Shown: positions 727 to 61,340, counted from the first letter of the whole stretch. The stretch is 63,810 nt of DNA, filler included, from Vannella sp. (GCA_023345925.1; 4 parts of 4 records of this genome joined end to end with filler, not necessarily neighbours in it), one strand, 5' to 3'. Numbers and translations: made by a program. Notes: a model not told the origin generated them from the sequence alone.

Positions 727-3700
727 TCATAGAGCGGCGCTGTCAGGGGTTGCGAAAGCCCTGTCAAATTCCTTGTTGATCTGCCGGGTGTTCCAGCGGA
801 CACGAATCTCCACTGCAACGACACCCAGGGCAACAAAGACAATGGCACCGCAAATCATTCCCAAGGAGATCCACGAGATGGTTCTGTCTCCATCTCCTTT
901 GGGATTGCAGGGATCTTCCTCTGATGGTCCCAGTAAAAGCAGAGCAAAATTGGTCAAATGGTTCGTTTGGCCACACAGAGAACCTTCTTCTGTTCTGGTG
1001 AGGCACCTATCTTCGCATTTCCACTTGGCCTTTCTCTCGTCGTAGTAACTCAAACACTGTCTTTTGTTCTCCTCATCAGACGGGACGAAGCAAACAGTCA
1101 AAGGAACATCTAAATCGGTGATGGAATTGTTTTTGCTATCAACAAGGGTTATCTGAAGGATGGAACTCCCAAGCTGCTGATTCGCAGGAGCTGCGGGCTC
1201 AACACTGGAGCCAATCACTGTGAGTGTAACATTTGGTTGGCTGCTTAACAGTGCAGGTATGAACAGACTTCCCAACTGATTACCATCCCCATCAGTCACC
1301 CTCACCTCTGATCGGGAAGTTTGGTTGGCTAAAGTCACGATTACTGTTTCCCCATTATTGGTGGTGGATGGAGACTGTGTTCCGGTCTGAGGGGTGTCGA
1401 TGAATGAAGTCTGCTGTGTTGAGAGTGAGGGCGTTTCAGATTGTAAGATTAGGTTTGGTACGGAGGTTGAGATGTTGGCTGTCACTGATGATGAAGAGTT
1501 CTCAGTAAATGAGGTAATCATTGATAGTGAAGAGAATTCCGAGGGCGATACTCCCAGTGAAAGTGAGTCTCCACTAGAAGATGCTATCGTTGGTGACAGT
1601 AATCCCGAAGGAGAGGCTGCCAAAGATAGCGGGAAAATCTCTGAAGGCGAAGATATCCATGATGATGAATGACTTTCAGAGGCAGAGGTCGTCATGGAGG
1701 GTGTTCTTGAAGGCAAGTTCAGGAATGATGGTGAAAGAATACCCTCTGAAGAAGAGACCGTCTTTGATACTGAAGAGGTTTCATAATTCGAGGTGGTCAA
1801 TGAGGGTGACAGAGTTCCAGATGAAGACACTGTTAATGATGGAGAAGCTTCGGATAAGAAGGCTATCATTGAAAGCGTTGGGGTTTCAGAAGGTAAGGCT
1901 GTCACTGATGATATTCCAGAAGACGAGGCAGTAGCTGACGATGACGAGGTTTCAGAAGAAGAGGCAGTCACTGATGATGATTGGGTTTCAGAAGATGAGG
2001 CAGTCACTGATGATAATTGGGTTTCAAGAGATGATGAAGTTTCAGAAAACGAGGCAGTCATTGACGATGATGAAGTTTCAGAAAACGAGGCAGTCACTGA
2101 TGATGATTGGGTTTCAGAAGATGAGGCAGTCACTGACGATGATGAGGTTCCAGAAGAAGAGCCTGTTGTTGATGGGGTTCCGGATGCTGAAGCGGAGGAT
2201 GAAGGTGAGGTCGTCAATGATAATGAAGAGGTATCAGATGATGAAGCTGTCACAGATCCGGAAGAGGTCTCAGAAGGCGAGGCTGTGACTGATGGTGTGC
2301 TGCTTTTCGAAGAAGACGATGTCACTGAGGATGTTCCAGAAGAGGAGGTTGTCGAAGACAGTGAGCGGCTCCGAGAATCAGAAACAGAAGTCGTTTCTGA
2401 GGACGAAAGGGTTCCAGAGGGTGAAGAGGTTCTAGAACAGGAGCTCGTTGGAGACAGTGAGGGGTAACTGGAAACAGAAGCAGAAGCCGTCCCTGATGCT
2501 GAAAGAGAAGACAGTGGCGATGGTGGGGAAGTGCTGGCATTCGATTGGGAACAAAAGAGGGAAAAGTGGTTTGACGAGAAAGAGGAGACATTAACATTGA
2601 GTGCACTCCCAGAACTTGCCGCTACAGAATTTACAAACAAGCCAGTGTTACCTCTGGCACCCGCTTTGACGAACACAGAGAAGAATCCTTGAGAGGCAGA
2701 TAATCGTGATGATGTTGCGAAAAAGCCACCTCCTCCTCCTCCACCCCCTCCATGGTTGATTGCTCCGGTGGTTCCATTACCTCCGTTAAGGAGCCATTTA
2801 AATTGATCAACGCCAAACCCTGAGGCATCGTTACAAAGAATCACAGCTGTTCCGCCAGCGCCACCTAAGAAAACTTCAGACTCTACTCTTGATATAGAGC
2901 TCGCTTACCTCCAGGTCCTCCGTCTGAATAACCAAGATCAGTCACACCAGATTCCCCCTGAAGATTGATTGTCGGATTGCTAGAGATTGGAGTGATACGT
3001 TCAAATGCATGAAAATAAAGAAGGCCCCCTCCAGAAAGTCCATAGCTATAGTTTTCAGTTGCGTTGTTGTTTTTGGTGGCCCCTCCGCCTCCTCCACCTG
3101 ATGCTCAAATGAATACAAATTCGATCCAGCAAGCTTTCTTACCCAGAAAGATTCGATTGGATGCGTTTGATGGAGCAGGTGCACCTCCAATGCCTGGTTC
3201 ACCAACTATGTAAGGTTCCGGGGAGAATCGGCCGCCATCTCCTCCTCTGCCTCCGTTTGCGCCACCTCCACCTCCCATATCACTCCAATTGGAGCCGCCT
3301 CCGGCATTTCCAGGTGCGCCTCTTGCGCAATTCGCTCCGTCTGGATAAGTCGTCTCTGGAGTACTCCCTTCGTCTCGGGCTGTTATTGGGCTGGAGGGTC
3401 TACTTGGAGAGCCGATGAAGCCTTCGCCTTTGGGTGCATTATAAGCAGATGAATCGTTCTGTCTTGCAGCAGTAGAGTTGTCTCGGAAGCTTTGCGGAAG
3501 GAAAGTTTGATTGATGAAGAAGACGGGAGCGCCAAAACGAATCGAGGGTCCGCCACGGAACCCTTTTCCCTCTAATGAGACGTTTCCTAGGTTGATACGT
3601 TCTGCTATGACAACCAAAACACCTCCGACATATCCGTTCCAAGCAGGCACAAACGGATTGCTCACGTTCACCTCTTTGCAAAGAGAAACTAGAATGACTT

Positions 3701-4094
3701 GGAATCGGTTGTTGCCCGTGCTGGAGTAGTTGAATTGGAGGGGCTGCAAGAGAGTGACGTTTGGTTTTGCTACTGAAGCCACAGAGGCGAACTCGTATTG
3801 TCCAGCAGTCCCCACATCAGTGAAGCCGTTTCCTGTTCCCTGATCTGCTCCGTAGTTGAGATCGTTTGAGTTGCTGATGTTCCCTCCTTGCATTTGTATG
3901 ATCATCAAAGCATCTCCAACGGCTAGATCGGCTACGAAGTCACCAAGAACAAGTCGGGTTCCCTCTCCCTCCAATCCTTGGAAGTAATAATTCTTTGCAT
4001 TGCACGAGTTCAAACAAGGATGGCCCCAAGCGAACACCAAGAACATGAAGATCACAGTCCACCACTGCAGAGGAATCACCAGATCGGAAGCCAT
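727..4094 (-). CDS. Secreted single-pass surface protein: signal peptide, Gly-rich head, Ser/Thr mucin-like stalk, GAIN/GPS-like domain, one TM, short tail (exons 4094-3143, 3097-2909, 2864-727)
   Basis: Two GT-AG introns join ORFs 3105-4094 and 727-2844 in frame through a 189-nt exon (GGGGGATKNNNATENYSYGLSGGG...). Hydrophobic N-terminus; GPS motif CLSYYDE..WKC..CL..LCGQTNHLTNFALLL; TM ISWISLGMICGAIVFVALGVVAV. Confidence 0.88.
1780..2340 (-). repeat. Coding tandem repeat with ~36-bp units (12 aa, ETQSSSVTASSS-like) forming the Ser/Thr stalk
   Basis: Recurring unit gaggcagtcactgatgatgattgggtttcagaagat and variants. Confidence 0.85.
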
Positions 4095-4311
4095 GAGGGA
4101 GGAAGAAGAAATACCTTCCCAACTGCCTCACCGATCGTCAAACAAGGTCCGAAACCAAACCGGATCGTGATTGGACCATTTTGATTCTCCAGAACCGAGC
4201 AAAACCCGCTACATTATTAACAACACGAAAAGCAATTCTTCGACCATTAAAGTTGTGGCTTGATTACCAAGTCCGGGTCGAGCGGCCTGAAAGTCCCACT
4301 TTTTCTTGGCA

Positions 4312-7300
4312 ATGTGCTCGCGGCTGCTCTTCTTCATCTTGCTTGCTAGTGTTGCTTCCTGCCTTCCTCAAATGCAGAAGGACTCTCTTCTATCCCTTTT
4401 CAGTGCCACTGGCGGGCCCTACTGGATCAACAACGCTGGAACGTCACTACGGACCCTTACACTTGGCACGGTGTTGCCTGCAATGCTTCCACTGGTGACG
4501 TTACACAGATCTTTCTCAACTCTAACAACCTGACTGGTTCGCTCCCGGATCTGCAACTGCCAGCACTGTTTCTTATGTAGGGAGAAGCTGTCTCACTCCC
4601 TTTCCTCGCCAAAGACACTTATCTTTTGCCTGCAGGGGATTGAATAACAACACTATCGGTGGATCTCTTCCAGAATGGTCCAATCTTACGAGTCTGCAGT
4701 ACATGTAAGGAGATTCAGTCCTCTTCCACTCGAATGCAGGAAGGGATCCACTATGTTCAACCATGAGGCTCATTGATGGCTTTTAGATTCTTTGATACCA
4801 ATCATATCAATGGAACTCTTCCCCAATGGTCCAATCTGACAAGCCTGCGACAGATGTGAGCAATTTCAATCCCCTTTGACTCATATGAGAGTAAAAGATG
4901 CCACTTGATCATGTGGACTTGAGCTTTGCGAACATAGAACATCACTGATCGCCTGCAGATACTTATCCAACAACCAGATCAGCGGATCTGTTCCAGAATG
5001 GTCCAATCTGTCGGGACTGCAGATCATGTGAGCAGTTTCTGTACTCTCTCACTCAAATGAAGGGAACGGGACCACTTTGATACGTGGATGAGAGCACAAC
5101 AAACACGAGATATCACTCACCGACTGCCTGTAGAGATTTGAAAACAAACCTGATCAGCGGACCTCTTCCGCAATGGTCTAGTCTATCAGGACTGCAGACC
5201 ATGTGAGCAGAGCGCTTTTCTCCCCATTCAAATGAGGACTGACCGCTTCATCATGAGGATTATCACTCATTGATTGCTTGCAGGTCCTTGTCCAACAACC
5301 AGATCAGCGGACCTCTTCCGCAATGGTCCAATCTATCAGGACTGCAGATCATGTAAGTAGTTTCAGTCCTCTTCCACGAGGGGAAGAAGACCACTGGAAA
5401 GTAGTTGCAACAAACAAAGTACATCACTCATCGATTGCAATCAGATACTTGTTCAACAATACGATCACCGGACCTCTTCCAGAATGGTCAGCCTTAACGA
5501 GCCTTCGAGAGATGTAAGCAATTTCAGTCCTATCTCACTCGAATTGGAAAGGGGTTTCTTAATGATTCGGACGTGATCGCCACAAGAATGGAATGTCACT
5601 CATCGATGTTTCAGGTTCTTTTACATCAATCAGATCAGTGGAACTCTTCCAAAGTGGTCTAATCTGTCGAGACTGGAGATTATGTGAGCAGACTGGATCT
5701 CCTCTGACTCGAATGGGTCAAAAGGAATTACTTAAAATGAGCATCACTCATTTATTGCCTGCAGGAGCTTTAGCTTCAACCAGATCAGCGGTTTCCTTCC
5801 TCAATGGTTCGATCTGTCAGGATTGAAGATCATGTGAGCCGCCCAGTGCCGCCATCAATCATGTGGACAACACTCATCAATAGCTTTCAGGAACTTAAAC
5901 TCTAACAAGATCACTGGAACTCTCCCAGAATGGTCAAACTTAACTAGCCTGCAAAAGATGTGAGCAACTTCAGTCTTGTGGAGAGGGGACGCTTCACCGT
6001 GATCACAACCATCACCCCCATATGACTCATCGATTGCTTGTAGATCCCTGGAAAACAACCAGATTAGCGGACTTCTTCCATACTGGACCGGATTGGGAAA
6101 TCTGTCTGAAGTCTATCTGGGAGGAAGTAACCGTCTTTGTGGGAATCTTCCAGATCCTCGTCCAAAGCAGTATCCTCTTAGTCTCTATAACCAAAAGTTC
6201 AATTGCACTATCCTTCCTACTGGTTACAGCGAAGGTGGAGCAGCATGCGATTCTGTCGAAGGGCTATGCAATGCCTCAAGTTTTATAAGCACAACAACCT
6301 CTCCATCATCCAGTGCGAGCCCCTCCGAGTCGGAAATGGCCTCAATCAGTAGCAGTGGGTCATTCACTGCTTCTTCCAGTCCTTCTGCTTCTGTAACGCC
6401 ATCTGCAACTGATAGTGGAAGTGTTTTGAGCTCTATTTCTTCCAGTCCAAAACCTACGGATTCAGCAGCGCCCTCTTCGAGTGGCAGTGGATCGTCCTCT
6501 GCTTCCTTCAGCCCTTCTGCTACTCCTTCTTTGAGCAGCAGTGGATCATTTGCTGCATCTTTTAGTCCTTCTGCTTCTGTTACACGTTCCACATCCGGCA
6601 GTAGGAACAGACCAGGTTCTACCACTTTGATTTCAGCAACGACCTCTGTAAGTGGTAGCAGATCATCAGCCCCTTCACCAAGTCCCTCTGCTTCAGTGAC
6701 GCCCTCTACAAGTGGAAGTGAAAGTCAAACAGACTCTCTGTCAGAGTCCTTTTCTCCTTCGCTCTCTGCTATTCCGAGCAGGCCGACCACAGGATTAGAA
6801 AGTTCCACTCTCTCTCCAAGCAAAAGCGAGATTATTCAGGGCTCATTTTCCATCAGTCCCACTTCTCCTATCAGTGAGACTATGACATCAACAGCTAGTC
6901 ACTCTTTGAGCCTTAGCAATAGCTTCCCCACAATTGCCACACCTTCGCCAGTATTGCCAGTGGAAGAAATATCTAGTCCTTCTCCAAAAGTATCTGAAAG
7001 GGTATCTTTCATCCCAAGTAAAGCCTTACCCAGTCTAAGTCCCACGAGACCACAGCGCACTAGTGAAAGCAGCTCGCCATTAATCAGCACATCTGCTTTC
7101 CCTTCTCCCTTCATCACGCCGGCCTTGATTGTGGTTGTCATTCCCTCCAATCTGACTGATTATAACTTTGTGGAGCTTTACGGATTCCCTCCAGAAGGCG
7201 CGGTAGGAGCCCTTTTTGTTCCTCCTAACTTAAGCAATCAAGCCAACCCCACTTTAATCACCACCTACATGGGTACCGCCATCAGCAGCTCTTCTAACCA

Positions 7301-7784
7301 GCAAGTTCTGAGGAGCACTATCCTCAATATCACCCTCCAAGACGGCGAAGGCAACTCTCTTACCCAATTGGACTCGTCACTAACTATATGTTTGGCCCTT
7401 CTCAACGAAACGAAGAAGGGCAAAAAGGTGTGCCTCAGCTATTACAATGAGCGCAAAAACAAATGGATTTGCGAGGATGAGTGCCTCACCACTGTTGCAT
7501 TCAAAGGTTCCAACGTTTTTAACGGGACAAAAGGAGAGCACATTCTTTGTGGCCAAACTGATCACCTTACTAACTTTGCTCTTCTACTGACTGGAACCGA
7601 TACTGAAGATCCCTGCCAGTCTGGCAGACATAACACTCTTGCATGGATCTCTCTTGGAATGGTAGGCGGAGCCGTCCTTTTGGTCTCGTTCTCTGTGCTG
7701 GTTGTTGAGTTGCACTTTCGCTGGGGACGCATCAAATTGGACAGACAACTGAGAGCAGCTTGCTCTCCTCTAGCAATAGCTTAG
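4312..7784 (+). CDS. LRR receptor-like protein: signal peptide, LRRNT cap, ~11 LRRs (one per exon), Ser/Thr stalk, GAIN/GPS, one TM; exon 1 frameshifted (possible pseudogene)
   Basis: Exon 1 is 4312-4576. Nine 69-nt exons follow: 4636-4704, 4787-4855, 4959-5027, 5134-5202, 5284-5352, 5445-5513, 5615-5683, 5765-5833, 5891-5959. Last exon is 6044-7784. All introns are GT-AG phase 2. Repeat consensus xLxxNxIxGxLPxWSxLxxLxx(I/M). C-terminal LCGQTDHLTNFALLL plus TM. Frameshift near 4435-4440. Confidence 0.9.
4577..6043 (+). repeat. Tandem array of exon+intron units (69-nt LRR exon plus 57-106-nt homologous introns)
   Basis: Introns share motifs gtgagcaatttcagtcc, cactcgaat and catcactcatcgattgc(c/t)tg(c/t)ag; exons share atcagcgga..cttcc..aatggtccaatct. 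Confidence 0.92.
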
Positions 7785-8069
7785 GCCGGACTTAGCAGCC
7801 CGTTTACTTCCTCCTTCTTTCCATAAACTCGCTTGTTTCATTGGCTCAATTTTGAGAAAACCCACGAGGTCAGGCGACCTGCTCTACCCGACCTTCGAAA
7901 AAGGGTCCCAAAATCGATGCTGAGTGGGTGGAATCGGATTTAGTGTTTTCAACTTTCTGCGTCCATTGCGCGATCGGTCGCCCAGGCTCATGGATTCTCT
8001 CAAATTTGTGCCCAATCCGGTTGACAGAGCTTCCAAGCTTCAGATTAGCGGGAACTTCAGGCTCTATAT

Positions 8070-8160
8070 CTGACACTCTTCCAGAAATGATATCCTCAAT
8101 CTCTCCCCAGAGCTCCTCCGTCTGTCAAGCTCTTTTGAGCACTTGGTTCATCCGTGGATT
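8070..8160 (-). pseudogene. Decayed partial duplicate of the end of GST exon 1
   Basis: Shares tctctccccagagctcctccgtc and flanking similarity with 8461-8550. Confidence 0.7.
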
Positions 8161-8174: not shown

Positions 8175-9168
8175 TTAGTCTCTCTTGAGGGTTTGGGGTC
8201 GATTGAGATAGAGATGACGGATGTATCGAACCACATTGGGATGATCTTGGTTCAGTTTCTCAAGCAGGAGGATGAGGCCGGAGGGTAAGCTTGTCTTGCA
8301 CGAGTCAGCAATTCCTCCACCATATTCAGGAATGGGGGGGTGCACAAAGTAGCCTGCCAAAGATGCAAATGTGATATCAGCAAATGAGAGCTCATTCCCA
8401 AGAAGGTATCTGCGCAAGTGGAGAATGGTCAGTCTCCATTCTTAAACAGCAACACATTACTGACTCTCTTCCATCCTGAAGAATGTCCTCCATCTCTCCC
8501 CAGAGCTCCTCCGTCCGCTGAAGCTCTTTCTTAAGAGTCTCATCCGAGATATTGAGGCCTCTGATGAGGAAAGCCTTTAAAAGAGGAAAAAGCAATTGGA
8601 CAGCTGCTCTCTGAACAACTGGAACTTCTGGTGCAGTGGCTCCCCAGATGGTTGTGACAATCGCCCGTTCAGGAAGAAGGTAATAGTACACAATCCGTTG
8701 AAAGGACACTCCAAATCGATCAAACTTCCGTTCCAGTTCGAGGGACGCTTCGTTTGCAAGAAGGAAACGAGCGTGTGGCAAGTGACCGTACTCTCCTGCA
8801 AGATATCGGAGTATGGTGGACGAGTTGGAGATCCGGAGAGGGATCTGAGAGATGCGCAAGGTCGGGACAGTCCTCCCCGTGAAGAGCATTCCAAGGATGC
8901 CTGCGCTACACTCTTCTGTGTACTCCACTTGAGCTTGATCCAAGCACCAACGTACTTTCTCACAGTAATGACTGGCAGAGATGGACTCAAGCACGATCCG
9001 GCGCTTCCCTTTCGTGTCCGCCAACTTGGAAAGCTGAGAGACCCACACCACAAACACTCCCACCAACGTGCTCACCAAGGAAAGGAAGAAGCCTGCATTA
9101 ACAAGCCACAGGGCTAACGGCAATCCCAATAGACCCGCTCCTACCATTTGATAACGAGAGACGCGCAT
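8175..9168 (-). CDS. Glutathione S-transferase family protein with N-terminal hydrophobic anchor (intron 8464-8410)
   Basis: GST-N motif ISASHYCEKVRWCL...TVPTL..SSTILRYL; GST-C motif DGREYLLGNELSFADITFASL after splicing. Confidence 0.85.
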
Positions 9169-9396: not shown

Positions 9397-10455
9397 TCAG
9401 CAAGTAAAACGGGCACTCTTCATTCTGCTGCGGGATGCTTGAGCAAGTGCGGGCTGGAAAGGCAATCTTGCGGGTGCTGATTGATTGGTTCTATGGCCGA
9501 GTCCAAGTTGCCCATTAAAGTTCCATCCAAAGATCAGAAGACTGTCCTGTGAGAGGGCCAAAGAATGGCAGCCTCCCGCAATCACAGCGGCTGCCCCAGC
9601 CAAAGAATGGATTTGGGTGAGCCTGATCTGGTCAGATGTGCTATTTGTTCCTAATTGCCCGTAGGCACCAAATCCACAGGTCCAGACGCCGCCGTTCTCA
9701 TCCAGAGACAGAGTGTGATAGAATCCGCAGGAGGCCACAAGCATGGGAGGGATGTTGTTGATTCGCTCAAGCTTAAAGACATCTCCATTGGTGCGTCCTA
9801 GCTGCCCATCGTCGTTGCATCCAGCAGAGAAGACGCTTCCTTCCGAGTCAATGAGAATCACTCCTGTGGAGAGGGCAGCCAGGCATCGAAGAGGTCCTTC
9901 GGAACGACTTGGTACTTCAATGAGGAGCGGTTGGAAGGCGCTGCTGGTGTGACCGAGGCCCAACTGCCCGTGGGAGTTGTCGCCTAACACCCAAAGGGTC
10001 CCTTCTTCGGCCTCTGCCACCAGAAAGCTGTTCCCACAAGCCACCTTGATGAGCGGTGGAAGACCTTCCACTCGTTGTAAGGAAGCACTCACCCAAAGGA
10101 GATCGGGCTCGATTGCCCACACCCAAAGGCCGCCTTCAGTGTCCAGAGCGGCGCTGTGAGACACACCAGCAGCCACCAAGGTGATTGAGGGTAGTTCTGT
10201 GACCTTCTGAAAGGTGAGAGAGGGAGAAGAGGACCGAGAGCAACCAGTATCCCACACAGCGCCCTCCGCATCAAGGACAAGGGAGTGGCGACATCCCCAG
10301 TCCACCTGAACCGGCTGCGGGCCATTCCAAGGCACCCTCGCTGGTTGCCATTGATCATCCTTGTGACTGAGACCAAGTTGACCGGAAGTGTTGGACCCAA
10401 AAGCCCAAAGGTCCCCTTCTATTGACAGAAGCAATGTGTGGTCACCGAAGGGCAT
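9397..10455 (-). CDS. RCC1/BLIP-II repeat protein (intronless)
   Basis: Repeated GxNxxGQLG and VAAG/VACG..H motifs; start placed at the MPFGDHT shared with the paralog at 392. Confidence 0.92.
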   Translation of the reverse strand: MPFGDHTLLLSIEGDLWAFGSNTSGQLGLSHKDDQWQPARVPWNGPQPVQVDWGCRHSLVLDAEGAVWDTGCSRSSSPSLTFQKVTELPSITLVAAGVSHSAALDTEGGLWVWAIEPDLLWVSASLQRVEGLPPLIKVACGNSFLVAEAEEGTLWVLGDNSHGQLGLGHTSSAFQPLLIEVPSRSEGPLRCLAALSTGVILIDSEGSVFSAGCNDDGQLGRTNGDVFKLERINNIPPMLVASCGFYHTLSLDENGGVWTCGFGAYGQLGTNSTSDQIRLTQIHSLAGAAAVIAGGCHSLALSQDSLLIFGWNFNGQLGLGHRTNQSAPARLPFQPALAQASRSRMKSARFTC

Positions 10456-10922
10456 GAGCAGATGACTGAAAATGGAAGAGAACGAAAGAATGTTGGAGCA
10501 GTTCAACCAAGATAACTACGAAATAGGCCATGCAGCCTCTCTTCTCAGTCTGTGAGACAGAACAACGATCCGAGAATTTCAAGTAACCGGATGTCCGGAC
10601 CACTTTCTTGCGTGCAAATGAAAAGTGGCGCAAGACAGTGATTTGACCACTATCTTGCTTTCCAATCATAACCTCTGCTGCGAGAGGCTGCTCGAACGGA
10701 AATCAGATGTGTATGAAGCAGGTCTTGTTGTGAGGAGTCGCTCTTCACCCCCAATGACAGACTGAGAACCCACTAAAACGTGGAAAGACCAATAAACAGC
10801 TTTAAATGAAAAAGGAACTCGATCTCTCAAGTGATAAGCTCGCCTGGTCCCAAAAACGAGACAAACGCAAGGGATACGCCAACGAAATACATTGATAAAT
10901 GTGAATGAATCATTAAGGAGTT

Positions 10923-13527: not shown

Positions 13528-16500
13528 ATGTTCGAGCAGCTCGTTTGGAGCCTGATCGAGCAATATGCCCAACGCTTTCTCAAGGACTTCTCTCCTGGTG
13601 ATCAGCAGATAGACTTGTGGAATGGGAGGCTAGTGCTTGAAGACTTGGAGCTGGATATTGAGGTTTGTACCACTTCCTTCGTTCTTTACCCAAGTTCTAA
13701 CGAGATCTGGGTAGGAGCTCAACATGCTGGATCTCCCAGTCCGCGTTCTCTGTGGCAAGGTGAAGCAGATCATAGTTGAGATCCCATGGAGTCGTATCCT
13801 GACAGATCCAGTCAAAGTGAAAGTGAACGGAGTGGAGGTGCGCTCTCTTTCACCTCGTTCTTCCACCTTTGCTTACCTTCTCATGAACAGCTGGAAGTGA
13901 CGCTTCAGAATGGAGCTCACCCTGCTCCTAAGTCTTCCAATGTCAGGGCGCAAACCAAGAAAGGCGGATATCTCTCGATCCTTCGCGATAGGATCCTAGA
14001 GAACCTTCAAATAGAAGTAGATCATGTGCGAATCGCAATCACTGATACGAAAGGGAGCTTCCCTGCAACATTCTGGCTAGTTATCCGTCGCCTTATCATG
14101 AACAGTCCTCCTGATTCTTCGTCTGATACAGTACAGCTATCTCCTGAGTGTAATCAATGCCCTGAGACATTCCCAACCTGGTTAAACCTCAACAACTTGG
14201 CCTCACAGAGTGGAGAGGTACGGAAGTGCCTGGAGGTGTGCGGGTTCGACCTGTACATTGAAGAAGCAGGAGAGCAGAGCGCTTCTCTTCCAACTTTAGA
14301 TGAATTTTGGAGCTGGCAGAGAAGAATGAGCTCACATCTCCACGCCCATGCGGTTGTAAGTGACGCAACCATGAAAGTTACTTTCTCTCTCGTTTGGCAC
14401 CCAATTCGAATCCTGCACTCTTGTGTAGTTGAGGGTCCAAATCCTATTGATATTCAACTCAAAGACACTGATATCCGAGTGTTTCTTTCATTGATTGATC
14501 AGCTCCGGCTATTGGTCTCTCGTTCTTCCTCAGAATCGGTACCAACAGAGCAAACAGAAATCAATGATGACGACGCTGAGTTTCTAGAGGAGACAGAACA
14601 GAATGGAGGGCTATTCTCTTGGATTCATTCCACCTGGTCAGGCTATGGCACCTGGCTTGGAGGTACATCTAACAACCAGGATGACTATTCATCAGGGGAG
14701 GATGAAGACTTCAGCATGGAAACCTCAGAAACTCAAGAATTGACAAAGGAGGAGCGAGATAATCTCAATCTTCTCCAAGAAGAACGGATCACCAGCTCGA
14801 ATACCAAGGCACTGTCGACTAACGTCCAAATTTCTCTGAGTGGGATTCGTTTAACCCTCATACAGCATGATGAGATCTTTGATATCGGTACTGGGCAATG
14901 TTTTGTGGTTCCCAGACCACTAATTCGGATTGTTTCTGAAAGCGTCCACTTGCAGATGTCGTATCATTTCCCCGGAACAAGACTTCATGCATCTTGTGGC
15001 AGTCTATACGTTGAAGATTTGTCTTGCTCAGAAACCAGTCTTTTTCCTGAAATCATTCAAATACCTCGTTCCAACTTTGTCCGTGACTCAAGTGCTTCAA
15101 AAGTACCAATCCACCTCAGCTTTTGTGCTGGTTTTCAGGGATCTCATTCATCTATAGATCTGACTTCTCCAAGCATCCTCATAGCAATCCCTGCTTCAGT
15201 TCTTACAAGACTGGTTTCTTTTGTGAAATGTGTAATTCAGCTCCCACATGCACATGCTAGTACCTCTGCTCCTTCTTCACCAGTCAAGGTCTCACTAGTT
15301 CCATCTTGGGGATTATCAATCCGCTTCGAACAGATCCATTTAATTCAATGCGCCAACTTTCAAGAAAAGAATACTGAGCTCTTAGTGGTCGAATTGGAAT
15401 CTCTGTCTGTAGAAAAGAGAAACATCCCAGAAGTACTGAGGAGATTTGATATTCTTGTACCACATCTTGCGGTTTACAGCGCAACCTTACCCACCTACCT
15501 CTGTAATAGCACCCAAGAAAGATTTTACTTTCTTCAGCCCCTTGAATTTGGCGTGGCTATCCGACAAATTCCTTCGTTACTCTCCCTTTCAGACATTCCA
15601 CAACATTTTTACCAAATCGAGTGTTCTATAAGCAACGCTCAACTCTTTTTTGTCGCCAGCAAATTGAAACTGTTATCCTCTATCGCTAAGCAATTCAAAA
15701 ATCCATTAAGGGAGCAGAATTCTGTGATCCGCAAAGAAAAGATCATTCATTCACCAAATCCCCCTCATAATCGCAACTGGCACTCGCTGAATTTGAACCT
15801 TGAACCAGAGACTGCAACATTTCAGAATGCTCCCTCTTCAAGAGTCGCTTTTCAATTGCTTATCAACTCCGCCTCTTTCAGCTTCCTTTCAGAACGCCAG
15901 CATCTTCGCTTTCTAACTGCGGCATGTCTCTATGTTGGAGAACTTCGTGCTAAACTTGAAATGAATAGAGGAGGAACTGATCTGGAATTTTCAGCAGAAG
16001 AAGCCCGAGTAGAAGATACAACTGGCTTCGTTTGGATGAGATTAACGTCATCCCCTCTCAGAGTTCCTTTGCTTGATTCCGAGCATTCATTCTCAGCGGC
16101 CCCCGAAGATGTTCATTTTGCTACTCCACTTTCAAAGCTTCCTTCAATGAGAGTACCAAAGGATTCTGATCCTCTGACTCCCCTCCAAGCTAATCGCCCG
16201 GGAATGTCACCCACTCCTGCTCCCCAGTCTAAGCAAACGATTTATATTTCGGCCCACTTGCCAAAGGACTTAGTTGGGCCTTCCTTGAAGATGAATCTTT
16301 GTAATTTAGATTGCATTTATAAGCACAATGCCCTTTGCGCAATTCTTTCAGCTCTTCCTCAAATTCCGCCTCGCAAAAGGCAAGGCCGTTCGCTGCAAAC
16401 GATGTCAAAAGAACTTCTGATGTGGCATTGGGCAGTTGCGCACATATTAGAGGATCGGCGCAACAGTCTGATTGCGTCTGCTAGACAAGGAATCACAGCT

Positions 16501-19500
16501 CTATATTTCTCGTCCAGAGAAGACTGGCTCAATTCACTGCTTACTGAAAAGAACTTCAAAAGTAGCAGCTATCGATTTACCTTAAAAGATATCACAGAAC
16601 ATCTCTCGCGATTACCTTCTGCTTTACAGATAAGCGCTGAGCAAATCCGACTTTCCTATCTCGAAGATCCACCATCATCTGACCAAAATCAATGGGAGAT
16701 CCTTATCCCTTCCATCAAGTGCTGTAGTAGACCATCTGATCAATCTTCTTCTCTTTTCAACCAAACCTCAATATCAGTTCAAATTGATGTTTCCACCTTG
16801 TCTACCACACTAACCAAAAAAGGAAGATCTGTTGATCCAGAAATTTTAGGTGCAAACTCTGATGCCAGCTCAGAAGATGAGAGATCTGAGCTCTCCATCG
16901 GCCCAACTCCCCTGGGTTTTTCGACCCAAAATCTGTCGCAGCCACTTTTGAAGATGAAGAGATGCCGTGTTCAGCTTACTTGGGACTCGAATCACTCTCG
17001 AGGCAAGCCTTCTCTGATAGGAAATGTGAAGCTCAAAAATTTTCTGACAGACGTGAGTGTTTTGCAATGGAATGATGTAAAGCGACTTCGTGAGCTCATT
17101 GCAGCTTCGAAATGGCCTGAAAGAAGCTCCCCCTTGCAAGAATCCGGAAAAGGAAACGGCTCTTGTTTCCATATCAATGTGACTGTGATGTCAGCAAAGG
17201 TTCGGCTACGAGATGCTGAGAAGAAACCGATAAGCTTGTTGACTTTCGAGAACCTGTCTCTTGGTGCTGACCGTAGCCACGATGGAGAAGGTCGTCTCGA
17301 TTTAAATGTGATTCTATCTGGAGTGGAACTACTGTCATTTGCCGCCACGACCCCAGTTCAGATCATCTACCAAACGAAGGAGGAAATATGTGCACTGCGA
17401 GCATCTGTGCTCAGAAAGGAGCAAAAACAATCAGAAAATTGGGTAATTCATGTTAGCGGGTCGATATCAGGGTATCAATTCAGATGGGATCCTCTTTTTG
17501 GCCAGCAACTACAGCAGTTTGTATCGCCAGCCAATTTGCATCAAAAAGAATCTTTAGAAGTTCCGCAGAAACATCTGGAGGTATTCGTTGAAGAAATAAT
17601 GTGCTCTGATATTAGTGTAGCTCTGGGAAGTGCCGAATCTGTTTCCATTCACATCTTTTTCGGCAAAATCTTTGCCAAATCTTCAAGACCACTTGGTGAT
17701 GAAAGCTCTCATGCTCATGTAGCTTTAGAGTCTGTAACATTGAGCGTGAAAGACTTTATTACCACCCAGAGCCAAATTGTATTCCGAACCCAATTGCTTG
17801 AGGCTGAAATAACGAATTCCCCTAGTTCTTTAGCCATTTCTTTCCGATGTGAAGGACTTGATGTGGACATGTCGTCATTTATTTTGGACTGTATCAAACG
17901 TACGATTGCTTCATTCTCTCGCCCGAACAAAGCAAATCTCTCCTCTAGTCGCCCACAAGATGAACACAAGAAAGAAGTGAAGTTTGAGTTCCTCTTTGAC
18001 TCTTCGCACTTGTACTTTTGCAGAGAAGAGGTCCGGCATGTCGATATCTTCTTCGAACGATTTCAAATTCTACGGGGAACGTTAACAGACAATTTATGCC
18101 CTTGGAGCTTCCTTTCCTTCGCATTTACAAAGAGCACAGCTTCTCATCGCCAAGATGGCACACTTCCATGGAGATCAGTTCTTGTTGGCAACACGTTCTC
18201 GCGTAAATTGGCAAAATCTTCATTGCCAGGTCTCTGTGATAATGCAGTGGGGTACTACGCAAAATTGTGGAGAACAGATGGATCTTCAAGCAAGACAAGA
18301 ATTTATTTCGGAGAATTGGAAGCTCAAATCAAACCGTTACTTGCTAGTCTCGTACAACTCCGCCAAATTATTTCTAGAACTCCTTCTCATCCAAAAGAGA
18401 GTCAATCCATCCAGCCACACGTCCCTACTTCATATTTTTTGCACGATTGGGATGTAAATATTGGTAAAATCTCTGGGACATTCCGCTTAGACTCGCTCAA
18501 GGAAAAGTCTGTCCTTACCCTTCACATCCAATCAGTATCCTTCCAAACTCATGCTCAGATCTCTGGAAGCTCAATATCTAATTCTGCAGTCGGATATGCT
18601 TCTATTGAACTTTCACAATTGGCTGGTAATGATACAGCTCGGTTATGGAGCATCTACAATTGCACAATTTCTCAATTCCCTCCCTCCCGCGGGTATATCC
18701 GCTCTGTCGAGGTTGAGTGTGATGTCTTTGAAGTGACACTGCCTCTCTCCGTCATTCCCTTGTTACAATATTATGCACTTGATATAGTCCAACTCAACAA
18801 AACCTTACGGAAGCCACCAATCAGATCGAATCGCCTTTGCACCTTTAATGGTGAGTTACTGAACTCACCTGAATCAGTTATTCAGGCAAAGTTATCCTCT
18901 ATTTGCTTTGATCACGCCTCATCAGCTCTGCGGTTCAATGCAGGATATTCATGGAAAGGCAGTAGTGCAAAGGAACGCACAAAAACAGTTATTTGGAGCG
19001 CAGGAGAAGGATTAATTCGAATAAGGCGCCTGAGTTGGACGAATGAAGGAGGATCTCCCAGAACTTCCGCTGTAATCCTACAATGTCATTGTGATGAAAA
19101 TGGCTGGATTGATGTGCTTGCTCCAATCGAAGCTAATTGTGCCTTAAATCATGTGGATACCCTTATAGCAAGCCGAGTCTCCGCAAAAACTTGGCGCTTA
19201 GTCTTCCCCTGCCCAGACAGTGAACAGGAAGGATTCAATTGGCCATTTATCAGCAACTTTCAAATTTTGGTCGACAACGAACAAGAATCTTTGCAGAACT
19301 CAGCTGTCAATGACGGATTCAATGGATCTTTGCAGACTAAGATCAAAATTGGGAACAGCACTGTGGCGCTCCACAGCGATACCCAAAGATTGAGTAGTCT
19401 ATTATTCCAAGCAGACTACCAGCTTTTAGAAGCTAATTTGATGTGTTTTCGACCATCTTTGGAGTCTCCGATGCATTTTGATGGATACTTGGAGACCCTC

Positions 19501-22500
19501 CTGCAACTTAAATATCAAGACTATGCACTTCTTGCCATCAAACCGCTACTAACTGCTCACCCCCGCATCCACATTAATTCTGACTGCATTGGGTGCCTTT
19601 CCTTCTCTGTTTGGGATTCTCCTGATAATCCCACAGAACTGAGGTTAACACGTCCTGTTCTCCAGCTAGCTCGAAATGTGATTGACTATCTTCAGCACAC
19701 AGCAATTACCCTTGCTAAAGGTCTGCCTATGGAAATCGACAAGTTGGGAATGTTTTTCCATTATCGCTTTGTCAATCATACCGGTATCACTTTAAAAGTG
19801 TCTGAAATACGGAAGGAACTGGTTCAAGAAACAAACAGGGAGCTACTGCCGATGGAATCAACTTACTGGAAGTGGGGTCTGACTTGCGAGGAACCCTTTT
19901 CTCGTAGAATACTCCTCCAAAGCGCTTCTTTTGCTTCAATCCCTCTCGACCTATCGCAACTAGGGATACAGCGAATCACTTTGGTAAGTTCTGATGGAGG
20001 AATCCTGACAATTTTACTCCGCATCAGCTATCCAGAAGCGAGAAGTTGCTCTGCTTCAAAGACCCTTGAAGTTGAATTTCTAGGGGAGTGGAAAGTTAGT
20101 AATTTCCTCCCCTTCCCAGTTTCAATTGAAGTACCAACGCCTTTTCAATCACCTTTGACAGTGGATTGTCCAAAAATCAAGACTGGTTTGCCCCAGCAGC
20201 GATTCTTCTGCAGCTGGGGCTCGAGTGAATCCAAACAGATTCATTTCAAGATCCGATCGCAAGGGTCTCCTGATTGCCAGCTCTCCTTGGACCTCCTTTC
20301 GCTTCGAAAATATGGAGTGTCCTCTCCAAGTCTTATTTGTGTACGACAGCTTGGAGAGTTGCATCAGCAGTACGCTTGGGTCAATTTCGAGAGAGAAAAG
20401 TTGGAGGGAGGTTATGAGCAACTTCATCTCCTTCTTAGCTCTCCTTTCTGCCTCATCAATCAAACTTCTTTAAGTCTTCGCTGGCGTGTGGAATATTCTG
20501 TCGGAATCCTGGGAGAAGGAATCATTCAAGAAAGAGAAGAGCTTCCTCTGTTCTTCTCTCCAAGGAGAAAGTGTTTCCTTCGAATCTGTTCTTCTCACCT
20601 TAATCAGGAGAGCTCCATTTGGTCAGCTCCTTATGAAATCACTCGAATACAACCACCCTGGGTTGTTCAAATGGAGAGTGGAATCGGACAGCTCTCTCAT
20701 GATGGTTTCCAATCCCCAATGCAGCTCCAACTCAGCTTCTATTCGAAGACGAATAACATGAATCAACGGTCCATTACTCTGGTCGCTCCACTCATCCTTC
20801 GGAACGAAACCTCAGAAGGTCTCTTCATTGCCCAATTACTCCTTTCTCAAGACAGGAAACCAAAGTTTCAACAGCAACTCTATCTGCCACCTGGCGCCAT
20901 CGCTCCTTTCGGATGCAGTTCGGATCTGCCCAAGACCTCCACATCACTTTGTGTGTTTGCTTTTTCAGCAAGATCTTCAGCTCCGACTTCCTTAAGAGCT
21001 GTTGCTTCTCCTTTAGCAGATTGGAACATGGCCATGGGGATTGATCCAACCCTTGTTTGCGGGGATTACTTGATCGGCTACCGGGAGATCATTCCGAACT
21101 TGGAGGGAAAGAGCGTTTACTCGCATAATTACTTGGCTCGCCTTTCTGACGACCAAGTGCTCGGGCAGAGGACTATTCGTTTGCTTGCTCCGTTCATGCT
21201 TCGGAATGAAACCAGTCATGCTCTCGCTATCGATAGCATTTGGACCTCAAATATGGATTTAACTGCCGATGAAGGAAACAGAATGCCGCAGGGAACATCT
21301 CCGAATCACTCCACAATTCTGGTTCCCCCCAAAAGTTCTCACTTGATTCACCACTGGACTCACTCTGTTGAAGATCAACCTTCACGCAGATACGGACTTG
21401 GTTTGGGAATGCTTGCTCGATACGAAGGAATAGGGTGGATGGATATCCTCCTGGTGAACCTCAACAAATCCGCATCCTCTCATGAGGTCCACAACAACCT
21501 GACGTTCCAACTCGACAGAATTCAAGTGAGTTTAATACCCAAGGTGGAAGAGAACTATCAAGGTCAATTTGAAGTGCTAGTCAAACCTGGTGATCCTTTC
21601 CCTTACTGGATTGTCAATTACACGCGTTATCCTTTTCGCTGTCGTTTTAGTCACTTGAGTGAAGAAATTGACCTGCATCCGGGCATCAGCTGTCCCATCT
21701 CTGAGCACCCAAAACTCGAGGATGGGCTTCTAATGTCTCTTCAAATGGCTCATCACCGGTGGACAGACAACATCCTTATTCAACGTCCCAGGCACTTCCT
21801 TTTTGCTTTGTACGGACCAATGGGTAGTATTTCCCTCCAAGCGTCCATTCAGTTTGTCCGGGGATCTGCTTTCTTATATCTCAGAGAAGCGTCACATCTA
21901 TTGGAAGGAAAACTTGACAAATTCAGATCTACCAACGAAATTGTGGACCAACGAGAGCTGTCAAAAATGCATTTGAAAGACTCGAACAAAGAAACCATCT
22001 TTCGAGAGCTCATTGGTTCTTCCCAAAAGCACCTCAGCAATCAATTTCTGGTTGCTCCAGGACTTATCGGAGGGCTCAAGTTATCGCACACCTTCATTAC
22101 GTTTTTGGGTGAAGATGGAACGTCTTTGTTGCGATGTGACTTAAAGGGACTGGGGACGAGTGTATCTCGACTACTCAGAAGAAACGAGCGGATACAAATG
22201 AGGATCCAATTGGAATCTCTCCTCGTTCATAACTCTCTAGCTGATTCACACGTTCCTGTACGTTGGGGCTGCGCTGAAGACCAAGCTGAAGAGTCGGCAT
22301 TCCAACTTTCTGTTGATTTGCCAGCACCTTTCTTGGGACATTTGTCTCGACTTTCGGTCAAAAGCGCTCCTTTGTATTTGAATTTGACTGGACCTTTTGT
22401 TTCTTTGCTTCTGCAGCTCGCTCCTGCTTGGATTTCTGCTATTCAGCATCCCACACAATCACACGGCACACTGAGAACTAGAAAGGAAGAAACTTCTCAT

Positions 22501-23757
22501 GCGAAAGTGTTTTTAGATCAATTCGAAGTTGCTCTTGGAATGGTAGAGGTCACTTGGCTGAATTCATCCTCATCCCTTCAATCACAACTTCCTTTGCCCT
22601 CTCAATTCCTGTCTGTCAGTAACTTGAGACTGAGATTCAGTGCCGTCCGTCACATCGGATGCCCCATCAATGTAGCACAAGCTGTGCGACAATGTGTCCT
22701 GACATGGCGCAGAGATCTTCTTTGGAGACTCTTTCCTACCTTGGGAAGTTTCGATCTTTTGGGCAATCCAACGCATTTAGTCCGACAGATGAAGCACTAT
22801 TTACGTGAGTATTCTGAGCTTATCAGATGGTCGGATGGTTCCGTAGAAGAGTCCACAATGGATGGCACACAATTTGGACTGGCAAGGAACTCCGAAAGTT
22901 TAGGTTTTGCAATCCTAGCTGCGCTTGTCGATTGTACAATAAGCTTTAATGGAGCATTGAAGGATGCAATGGCACTTGTAAGTCGAGATGCCTTGGCGCT
23001 ATCAGAGAAAGCACCAGAGCTTCTGGGGGAAAGCCAAAGTGACCAACTTCGGCATTTCCTGCAAACTGCTCGAGCTTCTCTGGAAGAGGCTATGAGAGAT
23101 TCGCTTTCTCTTCCTATGCAAGGATTCCGCTCAAATGGGGTCTTCGGGTTGCTTGTAGGGACCAAAGAAGCTCTTATCGGGTGGACTGCACCGTGCCTGG
23201 CAGGATTAGACGGCGCACAGAAAGTTCTCCTTCTCCTTCGTCGCTGGCTAATGAGTAAGAATACCTTTAAACCATTACCAGCTTCAAATACATTCCAGTC
23301 TACTCTCCTGTCAGCAGAAGAGCTGATTCGTCCTCTGAATCTGCTCGAACTACCTTCTGATGCTTTTTCTGCTTTGATTGGACCTGACTTGAAGGCAAAA
23401 GTGATTTTTTCTTGCAGAGTTAACGTTTGGACCGAACAATATGGTACTCTTCTTCAACACAGCCGCTCTTTGGTACTTTTTAGTGACTCTGTTACTCTTC
23501 TCAGCAGTAATTCTGTTTCTTTAGAGGTCCTGTTACATCAATTGGATCAAATTGCGCATGAGAATGAAGAACTCTTGACATTGAGCTGGCATGGATGCAC
23601 TCAACTTCTCCAATTGTCTTTTTTCCACCTTGCTGAGAGAGCAGAGTTTGTAGCACACCTCCAACGGCTCTATTACGGTTCAACAGGATTTGTATTGGTC
23701 CATCCGAGAGCCTGCCGCAGTTATGACGAGCCCCATTATGATTTGTTGGACGAATAA
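13528..23757 (+). CDS. VPS13: VPS13-family bridge-like lipid transfer protein (probably VPS13B-like); introns 13663-13714 and 13838-13890
   Basis: Chorein-N start MFEQLVWSLIEQYAQRFLKDF..IDLWNGRLVLEDLEL..IPWSRILTDPVKV; repeated P(F/L)xLxNxT segments; C-terminal LGSFDLLGNP motif; ~3,300 aa. Confidence 0.9.
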
Positions 23758-23890: not shown

Positions 23891-23990
23891 NNNNNNNNNN
23901 NNNNNNNNNNNNNNNNNNNNNNNNNNNNNNNNNNTTAATTAATTAANNNNNNNNNNNNNNNNNNNNNNNNNNNNNNNNNNNNNNNNNNNN
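23891..23990. other. Artificial contig linker
   Basis: N44-TTAATTAATTAA-N44, exactly 100 nt, stops in all six frames. Confidence 0.98.
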
Positions 23991-27796: not shown

Positions 27797-27916
27797 CTCC
27801 GAGACCAAAAAAAAAGGAGCCACTGGACGAAAATTTTCGTCACAAACCCAACTGCTCCTTTTTCTTCCTGGTATTGATGTGGAACCAAAACTATTCATTG
27901 ATACATTCATTTGTTG

Positions 27917-30572
27917 ATGCTACGGGCGGTGAGAGGTCTTCCTTTCTCACGGTTTGGCCAAAGGGTCATTCGTGCCAGCTTGTGCCAGGACTTGCCTGCT
28001 TCGGGATCAGTTGATCCGTTACAGCAGTCCAAATGGCAAAGGATAAGAAGGAAAGAGGGTATAGAGCGTCAGGAGTTCGACCTCTCGTCCATGCGGGCTG
28101 TTATCAATAAGATCATCTACCATAACGAAGCGAATGGCTACTCTGTGATGGCTATCTCCCCCAAAGAGGCTCTTTCTCAAGAGGTGACAGTGATAGGAAC
28201 GTTCATTGGCCCTTCCGAAGGGGAGCACATCGAGATTCAGGGTGGTTCTTGGAAGTCTCGAGGAGAAGAGTCTCAGATCCTTGCTGATCGGATTCTCCCA
28301 GTGAACCCAACAACAGTGGTCGAGACAGAACTCTACCTGTCAAAGTTCTTCAAGGGAATCGGCAGGAAGCGAGCCAAGGCGATCGTGGACATGTTCGGAG
28401 TGAAGGTTTTTGACGTCATTGAGAACAACCCTTCCGCGCTCTTGAAGGTCTCCGGTTTAGGAGCAAAGAAGCTCGAGTCTGTTATACAGCCTTATCTCGA
28501 ACGGGTCTCTGCGCGTGAGCTAGTCGACTTTCTTGTCAAATACGGTACGCTCGAGGAGGGATAATCTCTCTCTCTCCCATTCTAAGCTCTTCTAGATATC
28601 ACAAGTGACCATGGGTTGACTATTTGGAAGAAATATGGGAATGATGCTATTCAGAGGATCAAAGACAACCCGTACACCCTTTCACAAGACATTCGCGGGT
28701 TCAAGTTCACTCAAGCTGACGAACTGGCACAGAAACTGGGTGTTTCTGCCACTTCCGCAGTGAGAATAGTAGCGGGAGCACGCCATGTTCTGTTAGTGGG
28801 CTCAGTTCGCTTTGGACATTCAGTATTGCCTTTGACTTTTCTCCTTCAAGAGTGCGGCCAGTTGCTGGGATTACCTCCATTCACAGTGTATGAGATGATC
28901 CTTCAAGATATTCACTCTGAAGAACCCTCTTTGGTGGTCCTTCCTCAGCAAAGGGTGGACTTTGGAGACCTTTATGACTATGATTCCGTCAATTTCTTCC
29001 TATCCGAAGGGGAGGCCACATCCTTCATTGCTAAGAAGGAGGTTTATGACCAGGAGCGTGGCATTGCCTTGGATATCCAACGCATTCTAACCTCAGAAGA
29101 GAGTCATCCTTTGGCTCACATTCTCCAGGAGGAGGGTGAAAGTCAAGTTCTAAGTGGAGTTAGTGATGGCCTTTCTCCCAGCCAGATGGAGGCACTCCGC
29201 CTCTCGCTCAAGGAGAAAATCTTAGTGGTGACTGGAGGGCCAGGAGTGGGAAAGACAGCGACAGTCACCCGGATTATGAAGCTTTTTGAGAAGTATCAAT
29301 TGCCCACTCTTGTGTGCGCACCCACTGGAAGGGCTGCTGTCCGATTACAGGAGCTTTCCGGCATTCCGGCATGCACCGTCCACCGTTTATTAGAGTGTGC
29401 AGCCGGTTTCACTTTCCAACGGAATGAGGAGAATCCGCTCAGTTGCAAGCTGTTGGTGGTGGACGAGTTCAGTATGATGGACTTGGCCCTGACCCATGCT
29501 CTCTTCAAAGCGCTCCCGTCTGATACACTTGTTATCATCGTTGGAGATCCTGACCAACTTCCTTCTGTAGGCCCGGGAAATGTACTCCGGGTAAGTGATA
29601 TCGACAGAATCGGGTTCGCATTCCATCTGACTTTGTGGAGAAGGACATCATTTCCGGGGCGGCTTGCAAAGTCCATCATCTTTCGGAGGTTTTCCGACAA
29701 AAGGAAGCGAGCAACATCATTCGAGCGGCTCACACAATCAACAGTGGTTCCCTGCCAGACCTGAGCCACACGGTACCAACCAAAGCCCATCAAATAAGCC
29801 CCTTAACGAGCGACTTTTGCTTCGTAGAAGCTAGCAACAGTACCAATGTAGTACGTAGGAAAGCAGAACACTACACCAAAGCGACTAACAGCCTGTAAAG
29901 CTCAAAACCATATGCACATTAGTGACTTACATCCTCCCCCAGTACGGCTTCACGCCGGACCAGATCCAAATCCTGACTCCAGTCAACAAGAACGAACTGG
30001 GCGCTCAAAACCTCAACTTTAACCTCCAACAGCAGCTGAATCCCTTCCAATCGGGACGTCCCGAGATGACTTGTCATGGCGTTACTTATCGGGTGGGCGA
30101 CCGGGTGATGCAGATCTCTAACAACTACGACAAGGACATCTACAATGGGGAGATGGGGCTCGTTCGGGGTATCACGCGGACGGCTCTTTCCTCGAAGTCG
30201 AAGAAGAAGGTCGATGGATGGTGTGTGACCGTCCAGTTTGATCGCCATACAGAGGAGGTCTCTTTCAATGAAGGAGAGATGGATCAGCTCCTGTTGTCCT
30301 ACGCTGTAACCATCCATAAGAGCCAAGGGAATGAGTTCCCAGTGACTATCATCCCCCTTCACCCTCAGCACAAGCGCATGCTCCAACGTAACCTCATCTA
30401 CACTGCTGTAACCCGCGGCAAACAGTTAGTCATCATCGTAGGAGATCGCAGCGCCCTTCAAATGTCCGTCGACACCCTCAATGCTCAAGGCGCCTCCCGT
30501 TTCACTCACCTGGCAGAGACTATCCATCAAACTACCCTTCCAGCTCCTCTCAGCCCCGAGCCAGAGCGATAA
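27917..30572 (+). CDS. recD2: RecD2-type (SF1B) ATP-dependent DNA helicase with putative mitochondrial targeting peptide; introns 28545-28595, 29591-29643, 29851-29900
   Basis: RecD2 N-terminus (IIYHNEANGYSV, KGIGRKRAKAIVDMFG, IKDNPYTL); TGGPGVGKT, APTGRAA, VVDEFSM, VGDPDQLPSVGPG, EVFRQ, YAVTIHKSQG, RNLIYTAVTRGK; Arg-rich, acid-free N-terminus. Confidence 0.92.
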
Positions 30573-52216: not shown

Positions 52217-52316
52217 NNNNNNNNNNNNNNNNNNNNNNNNNNNNNNNNNNNNNNNNNNNNTTAATTAATTAANNNNNNNNNNNNNNNNNNNNNNNNNNNN
52301 NNNNNNNNNNNNNNNN
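52217..52316. other. Artificial contig linker
   Basis: N44-TTAATTAATTAA-N44. Confidence 0.98.
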
Positions 52317-61298: not shown

Positions 61299-61340
61299 GA
61301 GCAAATGTGCTCGAGAACGCCAAAACTAGGACGACAGAAG

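Follow-up and report, generated by a model that had tools for sequence, protein, structure and literature searches.

A Vannella leucine-rich repeat gene with nine 69-nt one-repeat exons on a predicted GAIN/ZU5-like single-helix scaffold, probably one of a large family

The window, i.e. the whole 63,810-nt stretch of Vannella sp. DNA that was analyzed, contains a leucine-rich repeat (LRR) gene at 4312-7784 on the plus strand. Its predicted product consists of a signal peptide, about 11 LRRs of 23 aa, a stalk, a GAIN-B/ZU5-like domain, a membrane helix, and a tail. The in-frame allele would be 876 aa long by arithmetic. A neighbour gene on the minus strand is located head to head with the LRR gene, and the two gene starts are about 218 nt apart. 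Contigs of three biofilm metagenome runs of one study (X1, X2, and X3) were compared with the window. A further run, X4 (share 0.06, 6 contigs on the gene), was too small to use. The features are as follows.

727..4094, minus strand: head-to-head neighbour gene with a non-LRR, Gly-rich ectodomain and a stalk-GPS-one-helix C-terminus (44% identity in the GPS-TM part)
4312..4576, plus strand: exon 1 (265 nt), with the start codon, a predicted signal peptide, a Cys-containing N-terminal cap, and the first LRR
4434..4459, plus strand: polymorphic site (4-base indel after 4435, substitutions at 4434 and 4459; Tyr in the window, Cys in X1 and X3 contigs)
4577..6043, plus strand: ten phase-2 introns of 57-106 nt, homologous by intron-core alignment
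4636..4704, plus strand: LRR cassette exon 2 (69 nt)
4787..4855, plus strand: LRR cassette exon 3 (69 nt)
4959..5027, plus strand: LRR cassette exon 4 (69 nt), the nearest to most related contigs
5134..5202, plus strand: LRR cassette exon 5 (69 nt)
5284..5352, plus strand: LRR cassette exon 6 (69 nt), 87% identical to exon 4
5445..5513, plus strand: LRR cassette exon 7 (69 nt), 5' half nearest to exon 6 and 3' half nearest to exon 10
5615..5683, plus strand: LRR cassette exon 8 (69 nt), 5' half nearest to exon 3 and 3' half nearest to exon 4
5765..5833, plus strand: LRR cassette exon 9 (69 nt)
5891..5959, plus strand: LRR cassette exon 10 (69 nt)
6044..6272, plus strand: start of exon 11 (6044-7784), with the last LRR and a Cys-containing C-terminal cap
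6285..7109, plus strand: Ser/Thr/Pro-rich stalk with degenerate internal repeats (60% S+T+P)
7122..7595, plus strand: predicted GAIN-B/ZU5-like beta-sandwich with a GPS motif (intact H-L-T at 7563-7571)
7635..7784, plus strand: one predicted transmembrane helix (a single hydrophobic segment), a tail of about 21 residues, and the stop codon

The nine cassette exons (exons 2-10, from 4636 to 5959) were each exactly 69 nt long. The ten introns between 4577 and 6043 were all GT..AG introns in phase 2. Five of the ten junction codons were AT/A (Ile), and the other five were AT/G (Met). These data matched the original prediction of nine 69-nt exons with phase-2 junctions at AT/A or AT/G exactly, and the uniform phase bore out its statement that the exons are interchangeable without frame loss. 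The spliced frame was open from exon 2 to the stop codon at 7782-7784. Splice sites were near-uniform: 7 of the 10 donors were GTGAGC or GTAAGC, and all ten introns carried a CTNAY branch-point-like motif 14-18 nt upstream of their 3' ends. A degenerate acceptor-exon-donor pattern matched eight of the nine cassette exons and had no match in 100 window shuffles. Because the introns are in phase 2 and follow a GTRA(G) consensus, read-through at each donor gives Met-stop; intron retention would therefore lead either to a short protein with LRRs alone or to degradation of the message.

In each LRR, the intron splits position 4 of LxxLxLxxNxL, so that the upstream exon supplies x2/x3 and the downstream exon supplies x5/x7/x8/x10. 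The predicted splitting of the concave strand over two exons was thus correct. The gene is a one-LRR-per-exon array: its exons are consecutive, equal in length, and the same in phase, with one repeat each. The cassette pattern was also searched in JGI metagenomes, where it matched a single locus, L001, which belongs to a different organism and was used as a control. L001 carries at 112-1270 a one-LRR-per-exon array in phase 2 with GTA-type donors, in which eight 72-nt exons and one 69-nt exon were found. The phase-2 intron at the first Leu of xxLxLxx was present both in the LRR gene and in the unrelated L001. According to the available text of Sun and Wang (2011, PMC3050792), a phase-2 intron splits this Leu in rice LRR kinases; the position is usual in plant LRR kinases and therefore needs no special explanation. 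The text available for PMC11378527 also gives phase-2 LRR introns for vertebrate gonadotropin receptors.

The signal peptide was called from a hydrophobic N-terminus judged by eye. The exon 1 cap gave a weak LRRNT_2 match (E 0.42), below the Pfam cut-off, and the 3D shape of the LRR arm is predicted from the repeat motif. A Pfam search of exon 11 gave no match. In a profile search, the H-L-T motif was aligned with the GPS of ADGRG3 at E 0.98. Residues 360-579 were then modeled; the model is of low confidence (pLDDT 58) and lacks helical subdomain A, and the upstream sequence is 60% S/T/P. Using this model, GAIN domains were the top three Foldseek matches (best E 0.0015, none below 0.001). A wide structural search with the same model gave ZU5 domains at Z 10.9 and 9.4 and GAIN domains at Z 9.9, 9.3, and 9.1 (rmsd 3.3-3.9 Å, 126-139 residues aligned); ZU5 and GAIN were tied. 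The best ESM Atlas match was a GPS at 0.89, which is a lead only.

An H-L-T GPS motif within a GAIN-like beta-sandwich, the mark of adhesion GPCRs, was thus found as a motif plus a predicted fold. In the available text of Arac et al. (2012, PMC3321182) and of the eLife article PMC12716839, GAIN domains are described outside holozoans and without seven helices. The LRR gene product resembles adhesion GPCRs, PKD1-like proteins, and Dictyostelium and Tetrahymena GAIN proteins, as these sources present them, in its adhesive ectodomain, its stalk, and its membrane-proximal beta-sandwich with H-L-T. Differences from adhesion GPCRs, as described there, are that it has one helix instead of seven, that its model lacks helical subdomain A, and that its GAIN match is tied with ZU5. 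We rejected an assignment as an adhesion GPCR, as one membrane helix is followed by the stop codon. From the motif, self-cleavage at the GPS site and shedding of the head are predicted. As there is no enzyme domain in the 21-residue tail, a partner would be required for any signalling.

The search for relatives of the GPS region gave 451 at E 0.001 or better. Among 147 of them, 107 had H-L-T, 30 had H-F-T, and 10 had neither; the long ones inspected among the 147 had unrelated ectodomains. Pfam was run on 27 of the 150 listed matches and gave 5 ZU5, 2 GPS, 2 collar, and 0 LRR matches, with nothing for 19. The ZU5 matches were in P0146, P0152, P0214, P0231, and P0253, mostly with several matched stretches each. 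In P0199 and P0248, which are relatives of window 7122-7781, a phage tail collar domain is located N-terminal to the GPS-helix part. The exon-11 cap opens P0126 (68% identity over 56 aa), which has a GPS-TM end, and also opens P0327, where Cys-rich repeats follow. The Gly-rich ectodomain of the neighbour gene at 727-4094 was 37% identical (E 4e-27) to that of 60366-61325 on the minus strand, with no Pfam match. As the same C-terminal part is located under unrelated ectodomains, including that of the neighbour gene, the stalk-GPS-helix part appears to be a shared anchor with swappable heads.

None of 401 proteins contained both at least three LRR motifs and a GPS motif; this absence carries little weight because metagenome gene calls would split such genes. 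Among the best 120 of 266 matches of an LRR profile search, there was no spliced family member; most were intronless-looking, apparently bacterial LRR proteins with 23-24-aa repeats, and plant receptors. In viral contigs, the cassette pattern had no match, and a GPS-profile scan gave 68 pattern matches, none of which was confirmed.

At 80% likeness, 453, 307, and 348 contigs of X1, X2, and X3 were located on window 3900-8000. Those less than 90% identical to the window numbered 279, 195, and 204, respectively; the search for paralogous cassettes that the original prediction had called for thus yielded hundreds of diverged contigs. Contig depth over the LRR gene peaked on the cassette exons. 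A single variant base at 4990 in exon 4 was present in 65, 39, and 54 contigs of X1, X2, and X3, whereas a helix-region variant was present in up to 13. Among the related contigs listed, loose ends showed AT/GT donors and CAG/R acceptors as in the window, indicating that the relatives share the exon layout. Most of the joints listed between cassette types recurred in two or three runs at similar depth. Recurring joints, such as an exon-4-like cassette followed by another exon-4-like cassette, fit inherited paralogs with other cassette orders; joints were assigned by best match among exons 60-87% similar and are noisy. The contigs are fragments, so exon number and order in the paralogs are only inferred. 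These sequences suggest that the LRR gene probably belongs to a large family. As a rough estimate, the family may comprise tens of genes and about a hundred or more cassettes, given that summed contig depth does not equal copy number, that other organisms may contribute, and that the assignment of fragments to a genome is uncertain.

Near-identical contigs (at most 2 substitutions) from the three runs tiled the array in the window's exon order, among the contigs listed. Introns 1, 2, 5, 6, 8, 9, and 10 were bridged with at least 31 bases on each side, and intron 3 was bridged by an X2 contig. The flanks were shorter for introns 4 and 7, and no single contig among those listed spanned exon 7 or exon 10. 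Ten joints were listed at 93% likeness. They were located inside exons and had at most 36 bases on the short side, as paralog matches would give.

The cassette exons were 48-87% identical in pairs, with dS of about 1. At the six concave positions, pN was 0.54 and pS was 0.60 (dN/dS 0.8-1.0), whereas at the other 16 positions pN was 0.16 and pS was 0.54 (dN/dS about 0.18), indicating purifying selection. This concentration of variation (pN 0.54 versus 0.16) agrees with the earlier view of the concave strand as a variable binding face. It may reflect loss of constraint or saturated diversification; positive selection is unproven. The intron cores could be aligned with each other (z up to 9.6), with the exception of introns 1 and 9, indicating that exon and intron were copied as units.

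Mosaicism of the exons was analyzed with codon blocks and a simulated null instead of a site-wise test, because sites of the same codon inflate incompatibility. With four window sizes, the codon-block incompatibility test gave p values of 0.005-0.020. The observed p was reached by 3 of 150 and 4 of 150 no-recombination simulations; with nine sequences of 66 nt, the signal is modest. In exons 7 and 8, the 5' and 3' halves had different nearest neighbours. Similarity between exons was not significantly correlated with that between their flanking introns (Mantel p 0.18 and 0.72). The breakpoints, if real, are inside the conserved exon core as in homologous recombination, not at splice sites. The longest exact run common to two exon-intron units was 27 nt, which, together with dS of about 1, indicates that exchange inside the LRR gene was not very recent.

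Our preferred reading, to which we give a probability of about 0.65, is that the LRR gene belongs to a likely large amoebozoan family of predicted single-pass surface proteins whose LRR arm is made of 69-base exon-plus-intron units. Heritable events, namely unequal crossing-over and gene conversion, would have increased the number of these units and recombined them, and neither splicing nor a programmed rearrangement would be needed. The symmetric phase would let copy-number changes and crossovers preserve the frame, and the conserved exon core would supply homology for the exchange. Diversity would be kept as many genes and alleles through birth and death. The LRR arm is predicted to act as a binding head on a glycosylated stalk, GPS self-cleavage would let the head be shed, and the protein may serve in adhesion to, or recognition of, prey, microbes, or substrate.

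The closest known case is Tetrahymena, in which tens of thousands of 90-bp phase-2 LRR exons are shuffled by ectopic recombination, as stated in the available text of Xiong et al. (2019, PMC6564038). Shared features are fixed-length one-repeat exons and phase-2 introns; many copies, which here are suggested by contig fragments of uncertain genome assignment, and inherited ectopic recombination are probable further ones. Differences from what that text describes are the exon length (69 versus 90 nt), the introns of 57-106 nt, which have no room for retroelements, and the scaffold, as the LRR array is here followed by a stalk, then a GPS domain, then a single helix. By this analogy, the LRR gene is best read as working like the germline-shuffling arrays of Tetrahymena, but on a GPS single-helix scaffold.

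Brown algae and plants offer further parallels. Ectocarpus has 72-nt LRR exons, of which the shuffled type I has non-coding intronic copies, and type II, which begins with xLxxNxL, carries no sign of shuffling in the available text of Zambounis et al. (2012, PMC3341825). The LRR gene shares one LRR per exon, phase 2, and the type II boundary with the brown-algal LRR-ROCO and LRR-kinase genes described there and in PMC11378527. Unlike those genes as presented, it has no ROC-COR or kinase, is predicted to be extracellular, and has repeats of 23 instead of 24 aa. Unlike Ectocarpus LRR-ROCO genes in these sources, it has no non-coding or inverted intronic LRR exons in the window. An assignment as a ROCO gene was rejected: there is no ROC-COR GTPase, and the last exon encodes a stalk, a GPS-like domain, and one helix. 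With plant LRR receptor kinases (ERECTA, SERK), as far as PMC3050792 describes them, the gene shares the intron position, the GxLP repeat, the signal peptide, the caps, and the single helix. It differs from them in its 23-aa repeat with a fixed Trp, its Ile/Met junction, the absence of a kinase, its GPS domain, and its long stalk.

The exon layout alone is ordinary, as it is already known in plants, Tetrahymena, and brown algae. The LRR gene adds to this an apparently large amoebozoan cassette family, and the GAIN/ZU5-like single-helix scaffold that bears the cassettes is found under other ectodomains as well. In a search of openly accessible literature listings, no description of an amoeba cassette family on such a scaffold was found. 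GPS domains would here serve to anchor variable heads in proteins other than GPCRs. If the paralogs exchange cassettes, this would be another independent origin of receptor diversification of the Tetrahymena/Ectocarpus type. The group is culturable, so that prey and pathogen recognition can be tested in it.

An old, static tandem duplication, in which the array was built once and whole genes were then duplicated with no ongoing cassette exchange, is unlikely but deserves serious weighing. It would explain the dS of about 1 between exons, the lack of any pair above 87% identity, and the constant exon order in the near-identical contigs of the three runs. The ordinary occurrence of the same intron position in plant LRR kinases (PMC3050792) and the type II exons of Ectocarpus, which have the same boundary offset and no sign of shuffling in the available text of PMC3341825, also agree with it. 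It accounts less well for introns that can still be aligned, for the modest mosaic signal, and for relatives' contigs that join cassettes in orders absent from the LRR gene, noisy as these joints are.

Improbable in our view is a repertoire made at the level of splicing, in which cassette skipping yields many isoforms of one gene by combining x2/x3 of one repeat with x5/x7/x8/x10 of another. Arithmetically, skipping could create 45 new junctions and as many as 512 subsets of the exons, all skips preserve the frame, and the exons are short. Dscam-type mutually exclusive clusters use complementary docking and selector elements in their introns. Among the 25 longest of 30 inverted repeats in this single gene, analyzed without orthologs for covariation, no recurrent docking-type pair was found. 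The introns are only 57-106 nt long, and their donors (7 of 10 GTGAGC or GTAAGC) and branch motifs (10 of 10) are regular; skipping is generally linked to weak sites and long flanking introns, although exceptions are known in algae and in some protists, which skip exons despite short introns (PMC6142364, in the text available). Up to nine splice forms are mentioned for Ectocarpus ROCO genes in the available part of PMC11378527. Variety would, moreover, be available from a large gene family without any skipping.

It is a long shot that several hundred interchangeable LRR cassettes across the genome form one pool that is remixed fast by targeted conversion or regulated skipping. Clones or single cells would then display different faces on self-cleaving, sheddable proteins, amounting to anticipatory recognition or antigenic variation in a free-living amoeba. 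The original prediction had proposed a combinatorial diversification system. Its molecular basis held up in part, as the cassettes are frame-interchangeable and related and show modest mosaicism. A cell-level system is possible but gained no support: exon order was constant in near-identical contigs, introns were short, splice sites were near-uniform, and there were no orphan cassettes in the window.

Lamprey VLRs have modular LRRs, a variable concave face, and a Ser/Thr/Pro stalk, and the LRR gene shares all three. In lamprey, an incomplete germline gene is completed in somatic cells with intronless orphan cassettes that flank it, and a cytidine deaminase is involved. A programmed or somatic rearrangement of this kind, or of the kind proposed for Ectocarpus, in which cells rewrite the array from donor cassettes, is highly improbable here. 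The large pool of similar cassettes in X1-X3 could supply donors, and rare rearrangements could be missed since contigs drop rare variants (X1-X3 may also include the window's own source). Against it, the LRR gene is complete and spliced rather than an empty germline locus, all 11 matches of the LRR motif in six frames of the 63,810-nt window were within this gene on the plus strand, and a search of the window with the LRR motif and the cassette pattern found no cassette within an intron, in inverted orientation, or as an orphan. An assignment as a VLR was thus rejected, and the comparison with lamprey proved weak. The ten joints listed at 93% likeness, which are located inside exons and have short sides of at most 36 bases, argue in the same direction. 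Recombinant loci of somatic origin are unreported even in brown algae, for which splice variants are reported, in the available text of Teng et al. (2024, PMC11378527).

As an explanation of the locus, a dead or dying pseudogene copy, or an assembly error behind the exon 1 frameshift, is scarcely credible: exon 1 of the window allele is frameshifted near 4435 and has Tyr at 4459, where the X1 and X3 contigs have the cap Cys, but one X1 contig has an open frame, neither a stop codon nor a damaged splice site occurs elsewhere in the gene, the non-concave positions are under purifying selection (dN/dS about 0.18), and the defect concerns one allele and not the family. Compared with the window, this X1 contig (1258 nt) is longer by four bases after 4435 and differs at 4434 and 4459, which opens the frame and gives the cap Cys. 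An X2 contig covering 4265-4437 was the same as the window, although it reaches only two bases beyond the indel. The LRR gene thus occurs as a frameshifted and as an in-frame allele. The frameshift itself is plausibly a real null allele, and an assembly error is conceivable.

Several other features of the window were observed. Just downstream of the LRR gene, a non-coding stretch at about 7870-8000 was single in the window and was matched by many diverged X1-X3 contigs; it is a candidate dispersed repeat or shared promoter-like element. A minus-strand gene of GST-like type has a 33-nt duplication (94%) toward its 3' end, at 8075-8122 and 8483-8515. RCC1-repeat genes on the minus strand, at 9397-10515 (by Pfam) and about 100-470 (by eye), flank both surface-protein genes. 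The plus strand has at 13780-23757 a stop-free frame of 3325 codons in an otherwise intron-bearing genome, whose product may resemble a VPS13-type protein. N runs (paired, 44 + 44 bases) at 23891-23990, 52217-52316, and 59897-59996 join the four pieces of the window.

An intron-split gene is located at 27902-30572 on the plus strand, in which a P-loop and later motifs were seen. Its product presumably resembles a bacterial-type RecD2/TraA helicase, and the gene is possibly an old gene transfer. A Filamin-Armadillo-kinase protein (Pfam) is encoded at 41058-44771 on the plus strand. The third piece of the window contains a STE20-type kinase, whose placement makes a Vannella-related amoeba the likely host, provided that all pieces come from one organism. 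In a 28-row tree, this kinase fell into a 17-row clade with support of 97/98, and the only named member of this clade was a Vannella transcript; dictyostelids, Physarum, and Planoprotostelium were outside it.
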